From a virus (lineage: Duplodnaviria; Caudoviricetes): DNA of 46,403 bases. The notes beneath the pieces were generated by a model. That model was not told where the DNA came from. It did no database searches and saw nothing but the letters and a program-made list of their open reading frames with translations. Below are positions 2,025-27,068 of this stretch, one piece after another. Each line of letters begins with the position of its first letter. Within the stretch, counting starts at the first letter, position 1. The translations under genes were made by a program, and so were the position numbers. The stretch is taken from IMG/VR virus record IMGVR_UViG_3300044667_000191, positions 1 to 46,403 of that record. One strand, written 5' to 3'.

Positions 2025-2206
2025 TCTGTCTCCAACAATTTATTGACTTTTTCAAGAAGCGCCCTGAGATCTTTTCTATTCCTTTCATTATAATCGATAT
2101 GAATATTTTTACTACCATTATAAACCAAAGATTCAATAAGAAGACACTCCTTGGGAGATAGAATCAAGATAAGTCTTTCAGGGAGCTTACTATAATCAGT
2201 CGTCAT
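2021..2206 (-). CDS. Hypothetical protein (start re-called to ATG 2206)
   Basis: GGTGGGAG RBS before MTTDYSK; fills the gap between flanking genes. Confidence 0.6.
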   Translation of the reverse strand: MTTDYSKLPERLILILSPKECLLIESLVYNGSKNIHIDYNERNRKDLRALLEKVNKLLETD

Positions 2207-3242
2207 CTCCACCACTAATATTAGTAAAATCAATACCTTTCAAAGCCTCAGCAAACGAAAGACCCTTTGCAACCTTTTCTGCTTCTCGCTTCTTTTCTGG
2301 GTCAAGCGGCTGAAGTGGGATCGGATCTCTTCTGCGAAACAGAACAGGAGGCTCCGTCGGAAGAAGCATCATAAATGGTGCGAATTCAGCAGCAAATCTG
2401 GCCTTAGGGTTCATGAGATAGACTACCTTATATTTGCCCTTTTCTGCTTGTGCTTCTTTAGATTTCTTTTCATGATGCATAAGCAATACGGAAGATGCGG
2501 ATTGAGCTACTCCGGAATGACCGAAAAGCTCATCCACCGTAACATCTTCCATATTGCCTACAATTCCAGCCGGAAGCTTTCGTGTGTGAGAAATACAAAT
2601 CATCCACACATCTAGCTTATGGCGAAGCATGTAAAGATTATCAATTGTAGCATTAACCTGAGTGTCATCTTTCAGTGAATCTGCAAAGCTCACTGAGGCT
2701 GAATCGATGATTACTCCTGTCGCCCCAGTTGCTCTGATAAGCCAAAACAAATCGGCAACATCAGAATTCTTCCAGAGTTTAAACGGGTCAGGCTGACAGT
2801 ATGTTTCTAGTCCTTCACTAAGAAGCTTTTTGTCTACATCTGAAATATCAGGATACATGCCATGAAATCGAAACTGAAGCTCCGGCTTTGGCATCTCTAG
2901 ACTTAGGACTAGAATTTTTTGTTGTGGAATATCTTTCCCGATCTTCAGGGTCATTGTATCTTTGCCGTGAAGCATGTTTACGGCAATCTGAAGAACGAGA
3001 TTTGTTTTTCCAGTACCGGAGCGAGCACCAACGTACATTAGTCCACGATCCGGCAACAGACCTTCAATTACCCACTTAATCCTTTCTGTTGAATCGTAGA
3101 TCTCCCCGAAATTAAAAGTCTTTCGAACTACGATCCCAGGTGGGATAAGTGGCTTTTCGCGCTCTTGGTCGGGAGCGAGCGAGATTTCATTTTGTTCTCC
3201 CTCCTCGCTTTCAATTTCTAGAGACTGGTCAAACTCCTCCAA
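2196..3242 (-). CDS. RepA/DnaB-like (AAA_25-type) helicase with no attached primase domain
   Basis: WVIEGLLP...Walker A GARSGTGKT, LSLEM, Walker B VIIDS, SHTRK, LFGHSG. Confidence 0.85.
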   Translation of the reverse strand: MEEFDQSLEIESEEGEQNEISLAPDQEREKPLIPPGIVVRKTFNFGEIYDSTERIKWVIEGLLPDRGLMYVGARSGTGKTNLVLQIAVNMLHGKDTMTLKIGKDIPQQKILVLSLEMPKPELQFRFHGMYPDISDVDKKLLSEGLETYCQPDPFKLWKNSDVADLFWLIRATGATGVIIDSASVSFADSLKDDTQVNATIDNLYMLRHKLDVWMICISHTRKLPAGIVGNMEDVTVDELFGHSGVAQSASSVLLMHHEKKSKEAQAEKGKYKVVYLMNPKARFAAEFAPFMMLLPTEPPVLFRRRDPIPLQPLDPEKKREAEKVAKGLSFAEALKGIDFTNISGGDDD

Positions 3243-3930: not shown

Positions 3931-4617
3931 TTACGCCCTACCTTCCACTTCGTCACGCATTGCCCTTTCTGCGGCCGAAATTCCACCACTGCTGGCCGAA
4001 TTTCCAGTCGGCTGGGCGAATTCATTCATGCCTTCGGATGATGCCCCACTGACCTGCGCCATAAGCGCATTATACTCTTCCGTACCCGGTTCGGGCATAC
4101 GCTTGAGACCCTGGGGAGAAAATCGAATTTCCCAGTAACCGCTCTCTTCATTCATGACCGCCTTAAGGCGAGTCAGGAATGGCCTACCGATCGTGTTTTT
4201 CGGGCGCGCCTGATTCATTTGGTCAACATTGTGACCAACAGCCCAAAGAAGCTTCTTGAAGTTTGACGCTACGGTCATGTCGTCCGGGTTGTTCTCAGGA
4301 TCGAAAACATTTCCGGTACTGTCCTGAATTGCCTTGGGGGTCGGAATCTGGTACCACCGACCGAATCCACGAAGCTTTTCGTACTTCGGCTCCATGTATT
4401 CGAAGACGAAATACGACCCAAACTTACCAGTAGGGGAAACCTTCGGCTGCCGCCATTCCTTGATTGCGATGATGTGATACCCATTACCAAAGTTGAACGG
4501 GTCATCGGCGACATCTTCGACCTTTACGCCAGAATCGGCGAAAAAGCCTCCACCTTCCCAGGAATCACCCCAGGCATTCGGGTCCTCGTTTTCCTGTTCC
4601 GGAGAATACTCCGACAT
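3931..4617 (-). CDS. Probable single-stranded DNA-binding protein
   Basis: Aromatic beta-rich core with acidic flexible ends; directly downstream of the AAA ATPase, as in Sak4-SSB modules. Confidence 0.6.
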   Translation of the reverse strand: MSEYSPEQENEDPNAWGDSWEGGGFFADSGVKVEDVADDPFNFGNGYHIIAIKEWRQPKVSPTGKFGSYFVFEYMEPKYEKLRGFGRWYQIPTPKAIQDSTGNVFDPENNPDDMTVASNFKKLLWAVGHNVDQMNQARPKNTIGRPFLTRLKAVMNEESGYWEIRFSPQGLKRMPEPGTEEYNALMAQVSGASSEGMNEFAQPTGNSASSGGISAAERAMRDEVEGRA

Positions 4618-6611: not shown

Positions 6612-6705
6612 AGGGTTATCCCTTGCTTAATTTACTATGGAATGCCAGGGCCACCAAAGCATTCCTTCTGACCGTTCATGCGTGAATCTCAGGGCCACCA
6701 TTAAT

Positions 6706-6993
6706 TCACGCACAATTTTTGCAGTAGCAGATCGCTAGCGTGACTCGGCCATTCGGCCAGACCTTGAATCGCTCTTGCTCGAAGTCAACGAATTCAATTC
6801 CGCACTCGTAGCATTCGCGAATTCCCACTAGCGGGGACGGCTTACCGCAAGCGTAGCATACCGCACGCTGGGTAGTTGGGTCTACCGTCCACCCACCTGC
6901 ATCGTTCGTTCTTTTGACACAGTAACAGAACAATGCGCGCTTTGTTTCGAATGGGATTCTTTGGGGTGGTTTGTCCAGTTCTTCAATTTCCAA
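6706..6993 (-). CDS. Cys-rich zinc-binding hypothetical protein
   Basis: Multiple CxC/CxxC pairs. Confidence 0.6.
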   Translation of the reverse strand: MEIEELDKPPQRIPFETKRALFCYCVKRTNDAGGWTVDPTTQRAVCYACGKPSPLVGIRECYECGIEFVDFEQERFKVWPNGRVTLAICYCKNCA

Positions 6994-7493: not shown

Positions 7494-7922
7494 TTAATCC
7501 CCTAAATCTCTCGGATTCAGCGCTCCGCCTTCACCTTCCCAAGTATGGATTGCAATACGCATTTCAATATAGCGCTTCGACATCTTCTTTGGATAGTTAA
7601 CTCTCTTTCTTCTTTTTCCCTGCTTCGGCTCTCTCGCTCGCTTCTCAGATTCATAAAAGCTTGCAAGCTTAGTATTAACTCTATTGAGAAGACGTGGAAG
7701 ATTTCCTTTTTTATTTTTTGTTAGATGAAGGATATTAAACTCCTTGCAGGGGTATTCAGGACAAAAATAAACGAAAAGCTCCCAACCTTTATCCCTGAAC
7801 CTATCCCGAGCAAGACTAGCGGCTTCAGACACCTTAGAGAAGGAAGATCCTTTATTTAGCCTCTTCGGACAATATAATGCCTTTTTCAATCTTTTGCCTT
7901 CACTAGAGTTTTCCCATTCCAA
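7494..7922 (-). CDS. Basic hypothetical protein
   Basis: K/R-rich ORF with C...C..C..H residues; start uncertain. Confidence 0.6.
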   Translation of the reverse strand: MEWENSSEGKRLKKALYCPKRLNKGSSFSKVSEAASLARDRFRDKGWELFVYFCPEYPCKEFNILHLTKNKKGNLPRLLNRVNTKLASFYESEKRAREPKQGKRRKRVNYPKKMSKRYIEMRIAIHTWEGEGGALNPRDLGD

Positions 7923-8479
7923 AATTCTTCATTTAGAGCTACATCAACAGGCGATGCCATGCGTGGATTATGCGGATCATATATTGCTCCCCAAACATAA
8001 TCAGGGTCATTCAATGTATGCCATCTATTGTGACAGAAATGACATATTCTATGAACATTTCCTTTTTCATTATTCAATGTATTCTTATCCGGGCCGTGGT
8101 GGCGGGCCTCCTGTTTTCCATTCAGACATCCTATAATAGGAAGTTTCCCGCCACCGCAATTCTTTTTCATCTGCCATTCGCAATCCGCTTCTGTGTCTAG
8201 CGGATACATTTTGGCAGCACGCTTTCGACCCGTAGACTGCTGATCTTTTAGCGCTGAATCATCTTTGTACGTGCGGAATGCTTGTGCGTCTTCCGATTCC
8301 TGATTATGATCCTCCGAATTTGACGAATCCCTAGAATCATCAACAGTACCAATGCTACCCAAAGGAGAAGGAATACGAATATCTCCATCTGGGAAAAAGC
8401 TAACATCGTCATTGTCTTCACAATTTCCCTTCAGTCGGCATTCATGAAAATCACCTTGGAGACACGCTACACATTTCAT
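7886..8479 (-). CDS. HNH-family nuclease-like protein
   Basis: RHHGPDKNTLNNEKGNVHRICHFCHNRWH matches HH...N...N...CxxCH...H. Confidence 0.7.
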   Translation of the reverse strand: MKCVACLQGDFHECRLKGNCEDNDDVSFFPDGDIRIPSPLGSIGTVDDSRDSSNSEDHNQESEDAQAFRTYKDDSALKDQQSTGRKRAAKMYPLDTEADCEWQMKKNCGGGKLPIIGCLNGKQEARHHGPDKNTLNNEKGNVHRICHFCHNRWHTLNDPDYVWGAIYDPHNPRMASPVDVALNEEFWNGKTLVKAKD

Positions 8480-8698: not shown

Positions 8699-8721
8699 CG
8701 TCGCTCCCCAGTGACGAAATG

Positions 8722-8919
8722 CTAATGAGTAAACTGGTTATATACCTCATCAAGTTCGTACTCAGTCAAAGCCATGATTTCTTCATGATTCAATTCATCA
8801 TCAAGAATAGTATTGAAAATCTTTTGCAGACCTTCGCGAACCAAAAGCAAACCTTCAGCTACTCCAGCGCTGTGGCGTACTTTTCGTCTTGCATTTCCGA
8901 GATCCCGTTCATTAATCAT
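8722..8919 (-). CDS. Hypothetical protein (start re-called to ATG 8919)
   Basis: GGAGGAAAA directly before MINERDLG. Confidence 0.7.
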   Translation of the reverse strand: MINERDLGNARRKVRHSAGVAEGLLLVREGLQKIFNTILDDELNHEEIMALTEYELDEVYNQFTH

Positions 8920-8992
8920 TTTTCCTCCAAAAACGCAAAACGGCGAATCATCTTGGAGTATCTGGCCTTCCAATTCGAATTAATCGAACTGG

Positions 8993-9253
8993 CAGATTCC
9001 GAGTGGCCCTACGAAATCACTTAACCAGACTTGCAAGATAATTCGCCGTCATTGCGGTGGAGCAATTACGCCCACTTACTTCCCCCTAATTCCCCGAGAG
9101 GTACGGTCAGTCAAAACCTCTCGGGGAAATTACTAGGGAGCGACGCTACCACCCGTGGTGGCCCGTCATAGTTAGTGTAGCACCTACACCGCCGACTATC
9201 AGCCTTGCAAATATGGACAAAGTGTGCTTCGGATCGAGCCACTTGCCGGTCTG
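8993..9253 (-). ncRNA. ~260-nt structured non-coding RNA of unrecognised family
   Basis: Fills an ORF-free gap. Nested helices: AGTGGCTC/GGGCCACT, CGAAG/TTTCG, CACTT/AAGTG, TTTGCAAG/CTTGCAAG, GATAGTCG/CGAATTATC, plus a perfect 13-bp hairpin (9090-9102/9116-9128). G-U pairs favour the minus strand. Confidence 0.7.
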
Positions 9254-9257
9254 TGGC

Positions 9258-9578
9258 CTATTCAGGCACTCCCCGACCTGCGGTGATCACCCAGAGTGCG
9301 GAATCCTCTTCGTATTTCACTGTGTGACTTACGCCACTCAATTCCGTTTCGCCGGTTTCGGGGTCAGAAAACGCAAATAGGTTTTCACCTAGAGCTTCAA
9401 GTTTATTTAGAAGCCCTGCGACAAGATGGTATATATCATATTCAAATGTCGTAGGCTCTTTTTTAGCCTCGGGAAGATTTGGTTCGTATTGACCGTTTGG
9501 CAAATTTCCAGTCGGCATGAGATTTCGACGTGCTTCGGCCGCATCCAAAGCTGCCGCCATGGCATCTTCACTGTCCAT
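9258..9578 (-). CDS. Hypothetical protein, apparent paralog of the adjacent upstream gene
   Basis: GGAGGGG RBS; shares Y..LV..LN.L..L.E...SG..T....DS..W pattern. Confidence 0.75.
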   Translation of the reverse strand: MDSEDAMAAALDAAEARRNLMPTGNLPNGQYEPNLPEAKKEPTTFEYDIYHLVAGLLNKLEALGENLFAFSDPETGETELSGVSHTVKYEEDSALWVITAGRGVPE

Positions 9579-9829
9579 TATTTAATTCCCCTCCGATACC
9601 ACTCTTTTGAGTCGGGATCAAGACAAATCGTATCTTCTTGACCTGAAATCATCATGAGTCCATCGACGTTTCTAATTTCGATATCTTCGTCAAGGCCCAT
9701 AAGGATATTAAGAGCATTGACCAAATCCTCATACCCTTTATCAATAGGTGTGAAGTAATCAAAATGTTCCTCAACCGCTTCGGTAAGCGTCTGGTAAGGA
9801 CGCAACAACTTCCTATTCGGATTACTCAT
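9578..9829 (-). CDS. Hypothetical protein (start re-called to ATG 9829)
   Basis: GGAGAG upstream of MSNPNRK; stop overlaps the next ATG. Confidence 0.7.
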   Translation of the reverse strand: MSNPNRKLLRPYQTLTEAVEEHFDYFTPIDKGYEDLVNALNILMGLDEDIEIRNVDGLMMISGQEDTICLDPDSKEWYRRGIK

Positions 9830-9899
9830 TACACTTCTCTCTCCAAGTAAATTCCCACAAACGCAGTTCGACAAGCGAACCACGCTTGAATCAATTCAC

Positions 9900-10121
9900 T
9901 TAATGACCATAAGCGTAGCGAATAGCATCTCTTCCCTTATAGCAGTCCTCAGGATTTTCTCCGCACGGTTCCTCTTTATGATTAGAAACCGTTCCACAAT
10001 TAGGGCAAGGGTGCCGACCAGTATTGCAATCCATGCAGCACCATTCACAACCGTCGTCGTCACCGTGATTACATTTACTTAAATCACGAACACACCCTTT
10101 ATCGCCCCACGACATGCCCAT
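9900..10121 (-). CDS. Small Cys/His-rich protein
   Basis: Nine Cys in ~73 aa, including CEWCCMDC and CPNC; start uncertain. Confidence 0.55.
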   Translation of the reverse strand: MGMSWGDKGCVRDLSKCNHGDDDGCEWCCMDCNTGRHPCPNCGTVSNHKEEPCGENPEDCYKGRDAIRYAYGH

Positions 10122-12258: not shown

Positions 12259-12577
12259 TTGGATGAATCTCCTTTCCAGCGTCTTTAATTAGAAGAAATT
12301 GTGGAGGAATCGGAGCACCCATTTGGGACGAAATCAGAGGAGAAGAAATCAAGTCCTCTGTCCCTCCTGCGTACACCCCCAACAACATCACCATACGAGT
12401 ATTATCCTCGTTTAGGAGAAATCCGTCCACCAAGAGAGAGTAAAGTTTTTTGTTGAGATCCCAACCATCTACATGTAGAAAATTAAGTGCATTAGCCACG
12501 TAGTCAAAATCAACCTCAGTTTTTTTTGTCTTCGTCAAGTCAAGAAATTTCAGTCGAAACTTAATTGGATCAGCCAT
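12248..12577 (-). CDS. Hypothetical protein
   Basis: AGGAAGGA RBS; overlaps the helicase start. Confidence 0.7.
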   Translation of the reverse strand: MADPIKFRLKFLDLTKTKKTEVDFDYVANALNFLHVDGWDLNKKLYSLLVDGFLLNEDNTRMVMLLGVYAGGTEDLISSPLISSQMGAPIPPQFLLIKDAGKEIHPSGG

Positions 12578-12593
12578 ATCTTTCCTTCCTGTT

Positions 12594-12730
12594 TAAATTA
12601 AGCGGGTCCCTTCGGATTAATGACACGGCGGGCAAGCGGCCCTTAAAGGCGGCCACACGCTCATTCTTCGCTGGGCCGACTTTCGCGGACAGCTTACCTC
12701 GCCGTGTCAAATCCTCTCCCGCTTAATTTA
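12594..12730 (-). ncRNA. 137-nt long-hairpin element, motif copy A
   Basis: Perfect 13-bp TAAATTAAGCGGG/CCCGCTTAATTTA, then GGATT/AATCC, perfect 10-bp TGACACGGCG/CGCCGTGTCA and GGTAAGC/GCTTGCC; fills almost the whole intergenic gap. Confidence 0.7.
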
Positions 12731-13323: not shown

Positions 13324-13421
13324 TAGCCCTGCCAAGATTCGAACTTGGTGCGACACAGATTCGGAAGGGTTAGATTCGAAGGAGTTTACCAAATCTGATC
13401 CGTCGCCTGCCTACCAGGGCC
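13324..13421 (-). ncRNA. tRNA-like RNA with no D-stem and no canonical anticodon arm (98 nt)
   Basis: Acceptor GGCCCTG/CAGGGCT plus discriminator A; T-arm CCAAG-TTCGAAT-CTTGG; 8-nt linker GTAGGCAG; long arm GCGAC/GTCGC + CAGATTTGG/CCGAATCTG with a 24-nt loop; no encoded CCA. Confidence 0.8.
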
Positions 13422-13424
13422 AAA

Positions 13425-13472
13425 CGTAACGGCAATTTCCAGTCATCGGCGTAACCGAAAACTGCCGCTACG
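13425..13472 (-). other. Leader hairpin 3 nt upstream of the tRNA-like RNA
   Basis: CGTAGCGGCAGTTT/AAATTGCCGTTACG, 14 bp with two G-U pairs on the minus strand. Confidence 0.55.
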
Positions 13473-13479
13473 GGTCTAT

Positions 13480-14544: not shown

Positions 14545-14626
14545 CGCAACCTCAAAGCGATAGGTCAAGGAATTAGCTTAAGGGCCACACCTAATTCGCT
14601 GACCTCAACCTATCACTTTCAAGCTA
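14545..14626 (-). other. Long intergenic hairpin carrying a GUGUGGCCCUUAAG loop
   Basis: AAAGTGATAGGT/ACCTATCGCTTT outer stem and GAATTAG/CTAATTC inner stem. Confidence 0.55.
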
Positions 14627-14628
14627 CG

Positions 14629-16011
14629 CTACTTCTTTACGAACATTTCTCGGAACTTAGCAATGCTATCTTCCGAGTTCCGCTTTGTTACTACTTCCAT
14701 TTCGAATGGCTTATCGTTGGTGCGGAAGTAAATGACAACGACCTTACGGCCATTATCATAGGTCCGCGCCTCAACTTCCAAAATCGAATGAATAAGAAAA
14801 GCTTGTTGCAGCGCCCCCTCGGTTTCTCCAAATCTTTTTACTGTTGCCATAAACCCATTAAGCGCCCAATCTGGGAGAGTCTTTGGATCTCCTGTGACTA
14901 CCCTGCCAACAATTTTTGCCTCTTTGTCCTCTTCGAATGCGTCAGCAAATGGAGTAGCCTTTACCGTAACTTGCTTAGGAAACGGTTTCACTTGCTTCAA
15001 ATTATTAGCCTCGACTCCTTCCTTACCGAAATCTATCTCAACCTTTCCGCCGTTCTTCGTGTCGAGTTTAATTTCAGCGCTTGATGGAATTTCGCTAGGC
15101 TTTACTCCAAGCTTATTTGCTACCTGGGAGAACATATCCCAACCGTCTCTAAAGCCAGACGAATATCCTTTCTCTGCATTCTCCTGCGACTTATCGAAAA
15201 TTTCCAACATATCCCTGTCGCGTTGGTCTTCAACATTGACCAAACGCATAATTGCATTCTTCAATTCCAGCATGGCCCGAGCAATGTCATTCATCCTTTC
15301 TTTTTGGTCTTTCACTTCTGCCACGGCCTGGAATTGCTGGTCTACCACTTTGCGCTGGTTCTCGCCAAAATTCGCACCAAGCGAGTTATTAATTGCACTT
15401 ACGTCGCGCTTCAATTCGTGAATCTCGCGCCGCAATTCACGCAAGTCCATACCTTCGGCGTTAGGGGTAATCGCCTGGACCGGACTGGGCGTACCGTGAC
15501 GCTGACGCTTTCTTTCTGCGCGAGTCATATTTACCTTTGGTGCCTCGGATTCGGAATCCTGCTGCGCCGGAATTTCCACTTGCATTTGCTGAACGACCTT
15601 TTCGATGCCGCGCGGCTCCTTCTTTTTGCTGGGTTCGCTCGGCATCACCTTTGCCTTTTCGTCAGACTCTGTCGCCTGCCGACTTGCTTCAGCTTCGAAT
15701 ACCTCAGTCGAAATCCAGAGGTACTTTGCGTGGTGACCATTTGGAATCTCGCCGTACTTCTCGATTTGCTCCCGAACGCGAAGAGTTTGAATTGCACCAT
15801 TTGCGGCACCGACAGTCAGATCAAGCTTGTGGTACTTTCGAATCAGAAACCTGATTGTCTCGGAAGTGAAAGCCACGTCAGGATCGTTAGGCTTTTCAGT
15901 CAGTGAATCCCGATAAGCTCTCATCATTACGTCGAGGACCATTTCAAGCCTAGTCATCTTTTTGGATGCTACTTTTGATTCGTGGTGCTTCTGATTTGTC
16001 ACGATCTTCAC
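14629..16011 (-). CDS. Hypothetical 460-aa protein: possible N-terminal winged HTH plus coiled coil
   Basis: AAAGGA RBS; helix-helix-helix-wing pattern in the first ~100 aa; heptad repeats centrally. Confidence 0.75.
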   Translation of the reverse strand: MKIVTNQKHHESKVASKKMTRLEMVLDVMMRAYRDSLTEKPNDPDVAFTSETIRFLIRKYHKLDLTVGAANGAIQTLRVREQIEKYGEIPNGHHAKYLWISTEVFEAEASRQATESDEKAKVMPSEPSKKKEPRGIEKVVQQMQVEIPAQQDSESEAPKVNMTRAERKRQRHGTPSPVQAITPNAEGMDLRELRREIHELKRDVSAINNSLGANFGENQRKVVDQQFQAVAEVKDQKERMNDIARAMLELKNAIMRLVNVEDQRDRDMLEIFDKSQENAEKGYSSGFRDGWDMFSQVANKLGVKPSEIPSSAEIKLDTKNGGKVEIDFGKEGVEANNLKQVKPFPKQVTVKATPFADAFEEDKEAKIVGRVVTGDPKTLPDWALNGFMATVKRFGETEGALQQAFLIHSILEVEARTYDNGRKVVVIYFRTNDKPFEMEVVTKRNSEDSIAKFREMFVKK

Positions 16012-17377: not shown

Positions 17378-17449
17378 GGTAGCAGACTCCTTCACTGTCA
17401 TGTGTCAAAGTGTCAAAGTCGCAGGTCAGACGTACTTTGACATTGACAC
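17360..17449. promoter_or_regulatory. Cluster of (G)TGTCAAAG direct and inverted repeats (operator or iteron-like)
   Basis: Copies at 17360-68 (inverted), 17402-10, 17410-18, 17435-42 (inverted) and 17443-49 (inverted, partial), straddling the wHTH start. Confidence 0.7.
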
Positions 17450-17456
17450 GCACTTT

Positions 17457-17795
17457 GGCGGGCAGTGCGAGTGTTCGTTCGTTCCTCACTCTCACTGCCC
17501 CGCCGAATGCAACAGTGAAATACCTAGAGCTTGCCTTCACTGTGACAATGTGTGTCCGTTTTGCCCATCGATAGCCTAGTGTGCACTTCATGTGCACATT
17601 AGGCCGTTTGGAGTACATTCGAATTTCTCTGAGACGAAATGCATTCTAACCGAGTAATCGAATTTGTGGACTCGATTACTCTATTGATTGCACTTCACTT
17701 ACGCTTTATGGCAATTCCTACGAATCCACCAGAGTGAAAGTAAAGCGTTGTCGTGTCCATTTGCTTGACTTGATCACCAAGTGATGCAATCCAAT
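17457..17795. other. Hairpin-dense non-coding tract
   Basis: Stem-loops at 17457-17504, 17512-17543, 17574-17604, 17652-17681 and a nested 17683-17795. Confidence 0.6.
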
Positions 17796-17849
17796 TATTA
17801 GCTCGACGCCCTCGCCAATTGGCATGACGAATTGTGCTTCGCTTGTTCA

Positions 17850-18047
17850 TTAGAAAGGAGCTCCATCAAATGTCGTGTTCCACAATGGACGATTAGCCAA
17901 CCGATATACAACACGCTCACTGATGAACATGTCACTGTTACGCCAATACTTCAGCATTACAGTGTCCGTTGGCTCGTACAATCCAGTTCGTACGGCCTTG
18001 CTTCCGCTATATGTGAATGTGATTTCAATTATCTTGCGCAACTTCAC
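17850..18047 (-). CDS. Hypothetical protein (start GTG 18047)
   Basis: GAGGAG RBS; GTGA overlap. Confidence 0.6.
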   Translation of the reverse strand: MKLRKIIEITFTYSGSKAVRTGLYEPTDTVMLKYWRNSDMFISERVVYRLANRPLWNTTFDGAPF

Positions 18048-18178
18048 CCTAAAAGCTCCTCGCAAATCAAGCACTGACCATCCCGCTTTTCACAGTTAAC
18101 GACATGCTCGTACAATTCATCATCAGTCATGTCATCGGAATGGTTTTCACTGTTCTGTTCTGATTCCTCATCCAACAT
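18044..18178 (-). CDS. Very small acidic/Cys protein; start uncertain
   Basis: H-x3-C...CxxC; stop coupled to the next gene; ATG 18178 overlaps a predicted -10, so the true start may be downstream. Confidence 0.4.
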   Translation of the reverse strand: MLDEESEQNSENHSDDMTDDELYEHVVNCEKRDGQCLICEELLG

Positions 18179-18205
18179 GGTGTGGGCGCCCCAAATTCCA
18201 GTCAC
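18174..18205 (-). promoter_or_regulatory. Repeated promoter motif, copy 3
   Basis: GTGACTGGAA-N16-CATGTT, just downstream of a terminator. Confidence 0.55.
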
Positions 18206-18242
18206 GTGAGCTTTTTCGATAAAGGTTTTGTTTGCGCAAAAC

Positions 18243-18277
18243 AAAAAAGCCCCGCAACCTAATTGGTTACGGGGCTT
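18243..18277 (-). terminator. Intrinsic terminator
   Basis: GCCCCGTAACC-AATTA-GGTTGCGGGGC followed by TTTTTT on the minus strand. Confidence 0.9.
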
Positions 18278-18282
18278 AATTG

Positions 18283-18462
18283 CTAATGCTGTCCAGCCTT
18301 ATTCGGAATGATTTGGTGATCATCCGATTGCGGAACTATATGATACCACTTTTTTTCACCACAATGATCAACCGAAATTTGCGTCTTGCATACCATGCAA
18401 ATTCGCGGCGGGTAGGTGCGCGGCTCTAACTGCACCTTGTTCTTCTTACGCCAGATTCTCAT
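18283..18462 (-). CDS. Small basic CxxC/His protein (start ATG 18462)
   Basis: AAGGGG RBS before MRIWRKK. Confidence 0.6.
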   Translation of the reverse strand: MRIWRKKNKVQLEPRTYPPRICMVCKTQISVDHCGEKKWYHIVPQSDDHQIIPNKAGQH

Positions 18463-20474: not shown

Positions 20475-20512
20475 ATCATGGCATGTTGTCCGAGATTTCC
20501 ACTCGCGATTCC
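20475..20512 (-). promoter_or_regulatory. Repeated promoter motif, copy 1
   Basis: GGAATCGCGAGTGGAA-N16-CATGAT, with TG extension. Confidence 0.65.
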
Positions 20513-20526
20513 GTTTTAGGTTCCGT

Positions 20527-20556
20527 AATCTGCCAGGTACCGTTTTCTCTTGTCAA
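20527..20556 (-). promoter_or_regulatory. Principal-sigma leftward promoter
   Basis: TTGACA-N18-CAGATT with TGG immediately before the -10. Confidence 0.65.
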
Positions 20557-20583
20557 CCATTCGCGCGAACTCAGTTCAAGCCC

Positions 20584-20612
20584 TTGCCGTCAACCAGACG
20601 AACACATAGAAT
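20584..20612 (+). promoter_or_regulatory. Principal-sigma rightward promoter
   Basis: TTGCCG-N17-TAGAAT, divergent from the leftward promoter. Confidence 0.7.
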
Positions 20613-22642: not shown

Positions 22643-22891
22643 ATGGATGGTTCAGAATTCACGATTGAAATTTCAAAACAGCCTGAAAGTTTTGTGCGAG
22701 AGTTCTGGATCAAAGTTCCTATTGGCGAACAAATGCTATATCATTTTTGGAAAGGAGAAGAACAACCCAGCATGCAATCTCTGATTGACAAGCTAGCTAA
22801 AGCTTTTACCGAATGGTTGGAGGAAGGGAATAATGAACGAACAGGAACAAACGTCATCCCCCTCTCCTCAAGGAAGCTTTTTGACCGATGA
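22643..22891 (+). CDS. Hypothetical protein
   Basis: Fills the gap; start re-called to MDGSEF. Confidence 0.55.
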   Translation: MDGSEFTIEISKQPESFVREFWIKVPIGEQMLYHFWKGEEQPSMQSLIDKLAKAFTEWLEEGNNERTGTNVIPLSSRKLFDR

Positions 22892-23606
22892 AGAACTCGA
22901 TTTGGTTTTCTTCATTGAACGCTATCATTCTAGTACTGGCAATTCACCTGATGACAAAAAGATATGTCAAAGGTTTTCAAACATCACGCCAGAGTTCCTC
23001 TCAGCCTTCAAAAAGAATCCGCTTGTCCTTCGGTCAATGGCGGCTCGCGGCATTCCATTCCCGGACCCCGGCGAAAAGTTTTCTCAGCGTCAAATGTCTG
23101 CTGCCGCCACAATGCTTTCATATGTTGATCGTCGTTCGGACGAGAAAAAGCTACGTGATATTGGCGTCACTCCGCGAGAGTGGGCAGGATGGCTCCAAGA
23201 TGAAGAATTTGCCACCTATCTACGGGATAGATCAGAAAGGATGGCAACAAATTCCCTTCATGAAGCACACCTTGGATTGATTAAGGGAATGCGCTCAGGA
23301 AATACGGCCTCGATCAAACTTTTTCTAGAAATGCAGGGCCGATACAATCCTGAGCAGGAAAATGCAATTAATGTAAGACTCGTTCTACATAAGTTCATTG
23401 AGGTAATTCAGAAATATGTGCGCGATCCTATTACGCTACACAATATTGCACGAGACCTCTCAAGTATTGCAACTGAAGAAAGTTTTGGCCAGGCTTTGGG
23501 GAGAACGATAATCCAAGGAGACAATTCGTTTTCACCCAGAGTGAAACCGGCCGAAATTGTTTCATCTGAACCACCCATGTTCGAGCCGCCAAGGATCGGA
23601 AAATGA
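22833..23606 (+). CDS. Probable terminase small subunit (HTH)
   Basis: HTH-like RDIGVTPREWAGWLQDEEF followed by helices ending GNTASIKLFLEMQGRY, a common TerS pattern. Confidence 0.6.
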   Translation: MNEQEQTSSPSPQGSFLTDEELDLVFFIERYHSSTGNSPDDKKICQRFSNITPEFLSAFKKNPLVLRSMAARGIPFPDPGEKFSQRQMSAAATMLSYVDRRSDEKKLRDIGVTPREWAGWLQDEEFATYLRDRSERMATNSLHEAHLGLIKGMRSGNTASIKLFLEMQGRYNPEQENAINVRLVLHKFIEVIQKYVRDPITLHNIARDLSSIATEESFGQALGRTIIQGDNSFSPRVKPAEIVSSEPPMFEPPRIGK

Positions 23607-25600: not shown

Positions 25601-26893
25601 ATGACTGATCTTTATGCAAACTGGGCACAGCTTGCGGCGAATGAAACTTTGAATGTTGATTATAGACTTCCAGTAAGATATAATACGTCAAGCGTAGCCC
25701 ATATTGCAATTCATGGTGGAGCAATTGAGCCTGGAACTACAGAATTGGCAAGCTCATGCGCAGCATTTGGATATCAGAATTACTATTCAGTTGAAGGAAT
25801 AAAAGCTTCAAATAATAGCGACCTACATATTACTTCGACTAATTTTGATGAACCCACTGCTCTAAATTTGGTGGAGAGTTCTAATTTTTGTTTTAGCTTT
25901 CATGGCTTCACCGGCACAGCCGGAGTTGCTGAAAGTTATATTGGCGGACTAGATACAGTAAATAGAGATCTAGTAGTTTCTGCATTGCAGCGCGCTGGAT
26001 TCACCGCAAGCAGTGGAACGCAAGAATTGAATGGCAATGACCCTACAAATATTGTCAATAAAACTCTTCAAAATAAGGGCGTGCAGATTGAAATTTCAAA
26101 CGCTCAGCGCGCCCTATTTTTTCCATCAAGTGATTTGAGTAGAACAAATCGTGAAACGGGTATTCGAACCGACGCTTTTTATCAATACGTAAAAGCAATT
26201 GTCAGTGTCTCGAATGCGGTGGAAGATCGGCCACAGCAGACAAGCAATTATAAATTCAATAAACCATTGTCAACTGATAAAATAAATGACTTTGAGACAT
26301 GGCTAAATGCAAACTGGGATAAGGCGGCCTATTCGACAGCGCCTTTGCAAATCACTGGCGCACTCCCCCAATCTGGTCCATTCAATATCGGTGATAGAAT
26401 TTATCGAACTGACGATACGTCAATTTACATCCTAATCTGTAAAGATTCCACATGGGGATGGTTTTGGCGTCCGGTTCATGCAGCAATTTCACCATGGATC
26501 ACTGTTCCAAATTCAGTAATTGGATCGGGCTGGACAGGAAATCCAGATCCATCAAATCCATTTGCCGTAGCACTAGATAACCGTGGAAGCTGCCATTGGC
26601 GAGGTGCGATAGCTCTTACCTCAGGGGTTATGACCCCCAATGTTAATTATCTACCCCTCGCCAATGTTCCTGTAGGCATTCGCCCCCGCATGGGAATGTC
26701 AACATTTCTGGGGTATTCATCATTTGGTGCAGCGTCAGGAGAAATTGAGAGCGCGCGAATCTTTATAAACTCAACAAGTGGCCAAGTGCTTTTTTATGTT
26801 CAAGGAGTATTTACGGTAGGGTCGCAGATATCAAAGCTTTATCTTGATAAGGTAAAGTATCCGATCGGAAATGCAATATATGATGTAGCGTAA
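25601..26893 (+). CDS. Poly-gamma-glutamate hydrolase (PghP/DUF867-like) domain fused to tail paralog 3
   Basis: AIHGGAIEPGTTELA, LHITSTNFDEP, SFHG, GVQIEIS; then YKFNKP...WLNANWD and a fibre-like C-terminal half. Confidence 0.85.
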   Translation: MTDLYANWAQLAANETLNVDYRLPVRYNTSSVAHIAIHGGAIEPGTTELASSCAAFGYQNYYSVEGIKASNNSDLHITSTNFDEPTALNLVESSNFCFSFHGFTGTAGVAESYIGGLDTVNRDLVVSALQRAGFTASSGTQELNGNDPTNIVNKTLQNKGVQIEISNAQRALFFPSSDLSRTNRETGIRTDAFYQYVKAIVSVSNAVEDRPQQTSNYKFNKPLSTDKINDFETWLNANWDKAAYSTAPLQITGALPQSGPFNIGDRIYRTDDTSIYILICKDSTWGWFWRPVHAAISPWITVPNSVIGSGWTGNPDPSNPFAVALDNRGSCHWRGAIALTSGVMTPNVNYLPLANVPVGIRPRMGMSTFLGYSSFGAASGEIESARIFINSTSGQVLFYVQGVFTVGSQISKLYLDKVKYPIGNAIYDVA

Positions 26894-27068
26894 GGAAGAT
26901 TTTCGACTTTCCTAAATTCAGCGGGAGCGTCGAAATCCTAAGCGAGCGGTAGACTGTTGCAAAACGGGCACGGCCCCGGAGGGGTTCTGCCCGTGAAGCA
27001 ATAGTCCTGCCCGCTGGATTTCGTAAGCGAGGGACCCGCTGAATTTTTAGGAAAGTTAAAATCTTCCT
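26893..27068 (+). ncRNA. 176-nt rod-like hairpin element, motif copy B
   Basis: Stacked helices AGGAAGATTTT/AAAATCTTCCT, ACTTTCCTA/TAGGAAAGT, AATTCAGCGGG/CCCGCTGAATT, CGAAATCC/GGATTTCG, AGCGG/CCGCT, ACTGTTGC/GCAATAGT, ACGGGCA/TGCCCGT, GCCCC/GGGGT. Confidence 0.8.

Follow-up and report, generated by a model that had tools for sequence, protein, structure and literature searches.

Few trans-acting RNAs are, to our knowledge, known to coordinate a phage's own gene classes, and our literature searches found none that does so in an actinophage. In plasmids, the ColE1 RNA I/RNA II, R1 CopA/CopT and IncI Inc/repZ pairs kiss through 6-8 complementary loop bases on stable hairpins, and these antisense RNAs are countertranscripts fully complementary to one target. 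Among phages, the HK022 put antiterminator RNA forms two stems one base apart at the start of its transcript and binds RNA polymerase, and the P4 CI and P1 C4 RNAs are small processed RNAs. According to the part of the published account available to us, the P4 CI RNA pairs with sites both upstream and downstream of itself, stopping replication-gene expression (PMC4825925). Here we describe a non-coding element from a tailed phage. The window, by which we mean the whole 46,403-nt stretch of DNA that was analyzed, corresponds to a complete virus record of 46.4 kb that has direct terminal repeats. Judged from sequence and predicted structure, the element is a new RNA family, with no match to any Rfam family.

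The genes of the window include a P22/SU10-like portal and capsid, WhiB, an SNF2 helicase, a PD-(D/E)XK exonuclease, a Sak4-like protein and an AAA helicase, and the phages of its clade are podovirus-like. The closest cultured phages (Cellulosimicrobium DS1, Arthrobacter Jasmine/Adat and Microbacterium Shocker) have 29-45% protein identity to the window, and an assembly of Streptomyces griseosporeus (JCM 4766) includes a 46.4-kb contig of a relative with a 50%-identical helicase. Because of these cultured neighbors and the S. griseosporeus relative, we infer that the host of the window and its relatives is probably actinobacterial. The contig (L163, G008:C11) is an entire 46,429-nt clade member with repeated ends and 51% GC in the part measured; its presence in the assembly could reflect a carrier state, an infection or contamination. 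Blastn gave no match for the window or the L163 element in GenBank phages, and none for the L163 element in plasmids.

Several other parts of the window were recorded along the way. The AAA_25 helicase gene (2196-3242, minus) lacks the primase-like domain that outgroups have fused to AAA_25, and no primase or polymerase was found among the window ORFs scanned. There was no GC-skew or iteron signal of a replication origin in the window. An HNH-like gene (7886-8479, minus) is kept across the wider podovirus family; it had no Pfam or PHROG match, a protein atlas search gave no usable family, and it was rejected as a partner of the RNA because it is also present in phages without the RNA. A poly-gamma-glutamate hydrolase domain lies on a probable tail protein (25601-26893, plus). 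About 900 nt at 17390-18300 (minus) are rich in perfect hairpins, with a clear terminator near 18280. Long intergenic hairpins at about 12575-12725 (minus) and about 26895-27065 (plus) have a common basal motif, GCGGGAG ... AGGGACCCGC, and each lies directly 5' of a ribosome site, that of gene 12577-12248 and that of the terminase large subunit, respectively. L304 and L306 also have the motif upstream of their terminase gene, and L085 has it once; these hairpins are possibly processing or operator sites.

The initial annotation had proposed a rod-shaped, phage-encoded RNA at 9253-8993, within a 338-nt gap. The gap (8920-9257) separates two minus-strand ORFs, one with its stop at 9258 and the next with its ATG at 8919, and the perfect 13-bp stem with a 13-nt loop reported in it is present. 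Folding of 9253-8993 reproduced the nested long-range helices, of which there are seven, comprising 37 bp with three G-U pairs; the fold as a whole has 92 pairs, 10 of them G-U. Its stability exceeded that of all 200 shuffles (z = -5.7 on the minus strand and -5.6 on the plus strand). A genome-wide z scan, with 8 shuffles over up to 37.8 kb, was too noisy for ranking. The view that the RNA belongs to no known family also held: there was no Rfam match for the window at gathering or E-value thresholds (E up to 10) or for the loci of five relatives (E up to 5), and ARAGORN found no tRNA or tmRNA. Literature searches yielded no description of this RNA, and four supplementary files of a viral structured-RNA catalogue contained no match, although the alignment archives of that catalogue may hold the family (PMC10690425). 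The fold itself is genuine, but what is conserved is something other than the rod; the original observation is partly confirmed and the interpretation placed on it partly supported.

In at least eight distinct relatives, a non-coding gap follows the SNF2 helicase gene at the matching position. A covariance model of the 3' domain, made from eight relatives with the window left out, matched the window at 9054-8932 on the minus strand only (48 bits, E 1.5e-12). This match extends 60 nt past the element as first annotated, and the next match in the window scored 19.5 bits. A sequence-only HMM from eight relatives did not detect the window; the covariance model alone did. Within the 3' domain, 95% of alignment cells pair and two-sided changes are found at 12 of 28 pairs, a result equaled by none of 500 shuffles, and sliding the alignment brought pairing down to 27-54%. 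P7 was out of register across rows of alignment A2 (75% pairing), which lowered its pair count. Pairing of P1, P4 and P5 showed similar covarying behavior in the relatives, with two-sided changes at 11 of the 12 pairs of the P5 upper helix. The conserved fold consists of three domains side by side with unpaired ends, and the elements of the relatives include a P2/P3 region. Together, homologues, covariation and G-U bias support the annotated proposal of a structured, phage-encoded minus-strand RNA outside Rfam.

The window, the relatives and the basal relative L312, whose short element has the promoter, P4, P5 and P6, group on a single branch in a quick tree of helicases (SH-aLRT 100; 10 of 28 rows). 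Relatives of the helicase with 45-73% identity number about 85. Since the ten genomes belong to a single clade, they do not count as ten independent events, and L005 and L085 in particular are closely related. Searching 80 HNH-anchored loci with the covariance model returned just six matches, all previously known members, and there was no match in 60 other Streptomyces genomes or in DS1, Jasmine, Shocker or L007. In the sister phage L007, which bears a primase, this gap contains another strongly folded element (L007:10960-11400, equivalent to L322), one that the model did not match. Contigs covering only 9226-9510 and 9561-9915 contributed no variants. Separately, the second-best model match in the window (E 0.0009) is a 21-bp hairpin at 13419-13475 (minus), with a base resembling the P6 base of the relatives.

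The features of the element and of its candidate targets are collected in Table 1. A predicted -10 box, TAYACT, with G at -14 is found in all ten genomes. Six variable bases follow it, and position -1 is a pyrimidine and +1 a purine in 9/10 genomes each; the -35 box is poor, and +1 was placed by us at the first base of P4. A G at -14 can compensate for a weak -35 in actinobacteria. No match to a plus-strand promoter facing the element was found in the window. In the part of the S. coelicolor study available to us, promoters have a TANNNT -10 box and prefer a purine at +1 and a pyrimidine at -1, a pattern that the predicted promoter of the element fits (PMC4895711). The predicted RNA would run from this internal promoter for about 235 nt, from 9167 to about 8930, and would terminate at the U-run after P6, where all ten genomes have 5-7 T within the first nine bases. 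Predicted RNAs from the ten genomes are 165-303 nt long and have z scores of -7.0 to -9.5 (30 shuffles each), and the sense strand has the lower energy in each genome; the z score of the window RNA, -7.7, is equal on both strands.

Table 1. Coordinates of the element, its predicted signals and its candidate targets in the window.
Feature	Position	Strand	Description
Rod 5' strand	9204..9253	-	window-specific antisense arm against 9037-8993
Predicted promoter	9174..9202	-	-10 TACACT (9179-9174), G at -14 (TG extension), weak -35-like CTGATA (9202-9197)
P4, first hairpin	9142..9167	-	pairing probability 1.0; begins at the predicted +1 (9167)
P5, long hairpin one base after P4	9082..9140	-	perfect 13-bp core, 9128-9116 / 9102-9090
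P6 arm	8939..9050	-	17-bp base, 9050-9034 x 8955-8939; upper stem, 9029-9023 x 8967-8961
P7 hairpin	8995..9018	-	loop UAGGGCCACU with invariant GGCCAC (9008-9003); predicted kissing loop
U-rich tail after P6	8929..8938	-	possible terminator; adjoins GGAGG site (8928-8924) of gene starting at 8919
Ribosome-binding region of small conserved gene 8698-8507	8699..8712	-	14-nt complementarity to RNA +23..+36 (9145-9132)
Target hairpin 1, tandem pair before exonuclease gene	6677..6714	-	loop with GTGGCCCT; 10-bp duplex with P7, -17.9 kcal/mol
Target hairpin 2, tandem pair	6639..6665	-	about 28 nt before exonuclease start (6611)
Long intergenic hairpin	14545..14629	-	GTGGCCCT in apical part; 8-bp duplex with P7
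Hairpin with GTGGCCCT loop	20681..20712	+	about 40 nt before XRE-type HTH gene (20749)

P6 has a conserved 4x5 internal loop (CAAG / NACUC), and its junction bears P7 plus an optional hairpin, P8 (8992-8970). Because the predicted start is downstream of the 5' strand of the rod, this strand would be present only in read-through RNA; it carries GTGGCT (9242-9237), the counterpart of an upstream GUGGCC-loop hairpin, P1, in the relatives. The RNA also has complementarity to the ribosome-binding region of gene 8698 that exceeds its complementarity to all 102 other starts in the window and is comparable in just two of the eight relatives. Own-genome pairing at this gene differed from cross-genome pairing (p 0.001; 0.012 without the window). 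As a conserved mechanism this pairing was rejected, being strong in 3/9 genomes relative to their own other starts.

The rod did not stand as the shape of the RNA, nor did 8993 as its end: the rod dominates only if the sequence ends before about 8945. Read-through sequences ending at 8975, 8960 or 8950 fold mainly as the rod, which is gone once 8940 is included; from that point the 17-bp P6 stem beats it by about 9 kcal/mol. When the full gap was folded, the 3' strand of the rod paired with 8955-8939 (probability 0.99) and the probability of the rod was 0.0. The rod excludes this alternative arm, P6, which is the fold conserved in the relatives. A check of pairing in homologues thus gave a divided result, the fold with the P6 arm being kept and covarying and the rod pairing being absent in 8/8 relatives, in which no rod-like upstream pairing was seen (z -0.7 to +1.3). 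In the window, pairing of the upstream segment with the P6 5' arm and P7 has a z score of -4.8, and none of 1000 shuffles was as good, yet 2 of 1398 genome tiles were equal. The findpath upper bound for refolding from rod to P6 is 35 kcal/mol. We interpret the rod as a lineage-specific, extended P1-P7 contact, present only in read-through RNA and likely to silence those copies.

All nine full elements have the same GGCCAC in the P7 loop, and in all nine its complement (6-8 bp) lies upstream in the same operon, in the relatives within the loop of P1. P1 is at a fixed position, -126 to -129, in 8/8 relatives, and the pair flanking the P1-P7 match varies among four genomes (G-C, C-G, U-A or A-U). 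An unbiased count of hairpin-loop hexamers in the clade genomes ranked GTGGCC first and GGCCAC second of about 4086-4096 (52 versus 17.6 expected). With the element masked and stricter limits, GTGGCC was still first (20 versus 3.7 expected; in 9/9 genomes) and GGCCAC was outside the top ten. In primase-bearing outgroups (230 kb) GTGGCC was not enriched in loops, ranking 955, and in the genome of L312 its rank was 1725. The hairpins with this word are intergenic and on coding strands, and some are syntenic. All ten genomes have a tandem pair before the exonuclease gene, and further hairpins follow the wHTH gene and, in some genomes, lie by whiB and before the AAA helicase gene; none was found in the late arm. 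The loop word, its repeated complementary hairpins and the conserved fold co-occur in this clade.

Matched changes were found on the two sides of the proposed contact. The window loop AGGGCCAC is matched by GTGGCCCT at all four distant hairpins, with duplexes of 8-10 bp. In L312 the loop is GCCACCTT and the syntenic hairpin has AAGGTGGC (8 bp), so that both sides are changed, and the L312 loop pairs better with its own target (-14.6) than in the cross pairings (-10.2 and -12.5). GGTAAC loops recur on hairpins of L312 (L312:6270-6300 and 9100-9120), including the second one before the exonuclease gene, and GGTAAC is perhaps a second loop word there. Across the nine genomes, flank covariation over 37 hand-picked targets was modest (permutation p 0.023; 0.086 without the window), and the core 6 bp had no true two-sided change among the nine full elements. 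The GUGGCC strand of these 37 hairpins has the more G-U pairs (48 versus 15) and is more stable in 26/37 (p 0.005), a strand bias that the choice by fold may have inflated. P7 alone has no clear strand bias (6/9 more stable; G-U 6 versus 7).

Most target hairpins do not overlap a ribosome-binding site. Near the start of the next gene, which is often unrelated, GTGGYY was present in 7/10 genomes, with starts assigned by eye, compared with 26 of 582 background starts (4.5%); the window, L083 and L277 are without this downstream word. No hairpin like that before the XRE-type gene of the window was seen upstream of the XRE gene in seven relatives. Repeated GGTTGACA (-35-like) boxes on the early strand occur at 20500-20600 and upstream of the XRE gene in the seven relatives, and mark a divergent control region.

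The initial annotation had offered an RNA polymerase-binding RNA, a protein sponge and an antisense hub as options, and the last is favored because one loop complements a family of repeated mRNA hairpin loops. We lean, by a little, toward the reading that the short RNA controls early and recombination genes in trans, as an antisense regulator, and that its read-through copies silence themselves. The complementarity of GGCCAC to the repeated GUGGCC hairpins makes loop-to-loop repression of those genes likely. RNA made from the internal promoter would expose its GGCCAC loop and kiss, presumably in trans, the GUGGCC-loop hairpins beside early and recombination genes. The outcome would be repression, through blocked translation initiation or mRNA processing; the repressive sign is guessed by analogy with kissing systems already described. 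Transcripts that read through from upstream promoters would bring their own copy of the target, in the form of the P1 hairpin in the relatives and of the 37-bp rod in the window, and their loop would be masked in cis. The rod would form before the P6 3' arm is made and would be slow to undo, both masking P7 and delaying formation of P6, the terminator. Only RNA from the internal promoter would then be active, and it could bring about early-gene shut-off or a carrier-state switch.

A bolder version of this regulator, which we find rather doubtful, is that one large folded RNA addresses every mRNA hairpin with the six-base word and either brings to it a protein attached to the conserved internal loop or serves there as a primer for DNA; the loss of primase in this clade maps to the same branch. 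If true, it would be a programmable hairpin-addressed RNA effector without a described counterpart.

It is unlikely that the element acts solely as a leader or attenuator in cis, with P6 and the U-run terminating transcription ahead of the downstream recombination/replication genes or gating their ribosome site. The off-switch would be the GUGGCC copy (P1 or rod) that pairs with P7 in read-through RNA, and the distant hairpins would serve another purpose. Such a role agrees with the end of P6, where 5-7 T follow and, in most genomes, the next ribosome site is 10-30 nt downstream, with the dominance of the rod until about 8945 and the findpath barrier to P6 of up to 35 kcal/mol, and with the fixed position of P1 in all eight relatives. 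However, it leaves unaccounted for the recurrence of the word kilobases away and its change together with P7, and the extended rod is missing in 8/8 relatives. Attenuation in cis and kissing regulation in trans can be compatible.

Operator hairpins typically repeat one loop word on stems that are otherwise unrelated. The GUGGCC hairpins might then be sites of protein binding or cleavage, with P7 a site of the same kind on the opposite strand and the RNA a scaffold or sponge, an explanation that we consider quite unlikely. The lack of strand bias in P7 alone would suit it, as would the conserved 257-aa wHTH and 381-aa orphan proteins of the clade (an atlas search with the latter gave no usable family). 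But the arm that bears P7 folds better on the sense strand in 10/10 genomes, the variants GTGGTC and GTGGCT retain G-U pairing with GGCCAC, and loop and target have shifted together in L312.

We give little credence to a replication RNA that takes the place of the lost primase by kissing GTGGCC hairpins in single-stranded DNA or forming a ColE1 RNA II-like hybrid, and that is cut into primers. Searches of the window, and of nearly the entire length of six related virus records, found no primase domain. Of the 80 HNH-anchored loci, 35 have the domain, in 34 cases as a fusion with the AAA helicase, and the RNA is absent from all 35. This correlation is weak because primase loss and RNA gain on one branch are a single event and because L329 and L337 also have no primase domain, yet gave no RNA match. 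In addition, the hairpins track the direction of transcription and none was found in the late arm, there is no GC-skew turn at 9 kb, and phages can rely on the DnaG of their host.

That the RNA is a 6S/Ms1-like rod binding to host RNA polymerase, the lead offered by the initial annotation, is extremely unlikely: the length is in the Ms1/6S RNA range given in the part of that account available to us (PMC9130861) and the truncated sequence folds as an irregular rod, but this rod is window-specific, requires a truncated 3' end, includes the predicted promoter and is neither the full-length fold nor conserved, the conserved fold being three adjacent domains with unpaired ends, and the Rfam searches of the window (E up to 10) and of five relatives' loci (E up to 5) gave no match.

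Because the new RNA family comes with named targets and with compensatory alleles that occur naturally, the kissing model is directly testable, and the S. griseosporeus member offers a possible host and source of phage. If the model is true, Streptomyces could gain an orthogonal gene-control part in the six-base loop code, which may also account for how these integrase-less phages time their early genes or persist in the host.

Comparison with described RNAs places the element nearest to the phage antisense regulators. By geometry alone, it resembles the HK022 put RNA in having two hairpins (P4 and P5) one base apart right after the predicted start; its hairpins are much longer, and put leaves P6/P7 and the loop code unaccounted for. 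The defining feature of the phi29 pRNA was taken to be a packaging motor without a small terminase, whereas the window has a terminase small subunit match at 22833-23606 (phrog_24579, E 1e-7). No reverse transcriptase, a feature of retron msr-msd RNAs, was found among the 52 ORFs scanned in the window. Size, strong folding and the probably actinobacterial host are shared with Ms1/6S. Unlike those RNAs, as described in the part of the source available to us, the element is without a model match, paired ends, a conserved central-bubble rod and HAD-hydrolase synteny, and it has a predicted internal promoter (PMC9130861). In contrast to the plasmid countertranscripts, it has 6-10 nt of complementarity to several non-overlapping targets on the same strand.

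The P4 CI RNA (seqA/seqB/seqC), P1 C4 and Gifsy-1 IsrK resemble the element in having complementary sites on both sides of their own gene, before replication functions, as far as the available parts of the two sources describe them (PMC4825925, PMC8198154). The upstream target is present, with 6-8 bp, in 9/9 full elements; a downstream target at a translation start is seen in 7/10 genomes and not in the window, and distant hairpins are found in all. P4 CI and P1 C4 are processed from a leader, whereas the sequence of the element suggests a primary transcript. Those two RNAs bring about premature termination and maintain lysogeny. Its targets are dispersed hairpin loops up to 11 kb away, and no integrase was found among the 52 ORFs scanned in the window. 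Because it has no Rfam match, is larger (160-300 nt), has a predicted internal promoter of its own and has dispersed hairpin targets, we place the element outside the P4 CI family. By analogy, the best reading is that it works like the P4 CI RNA, as a multi-target kissing-loop antisense regulator.
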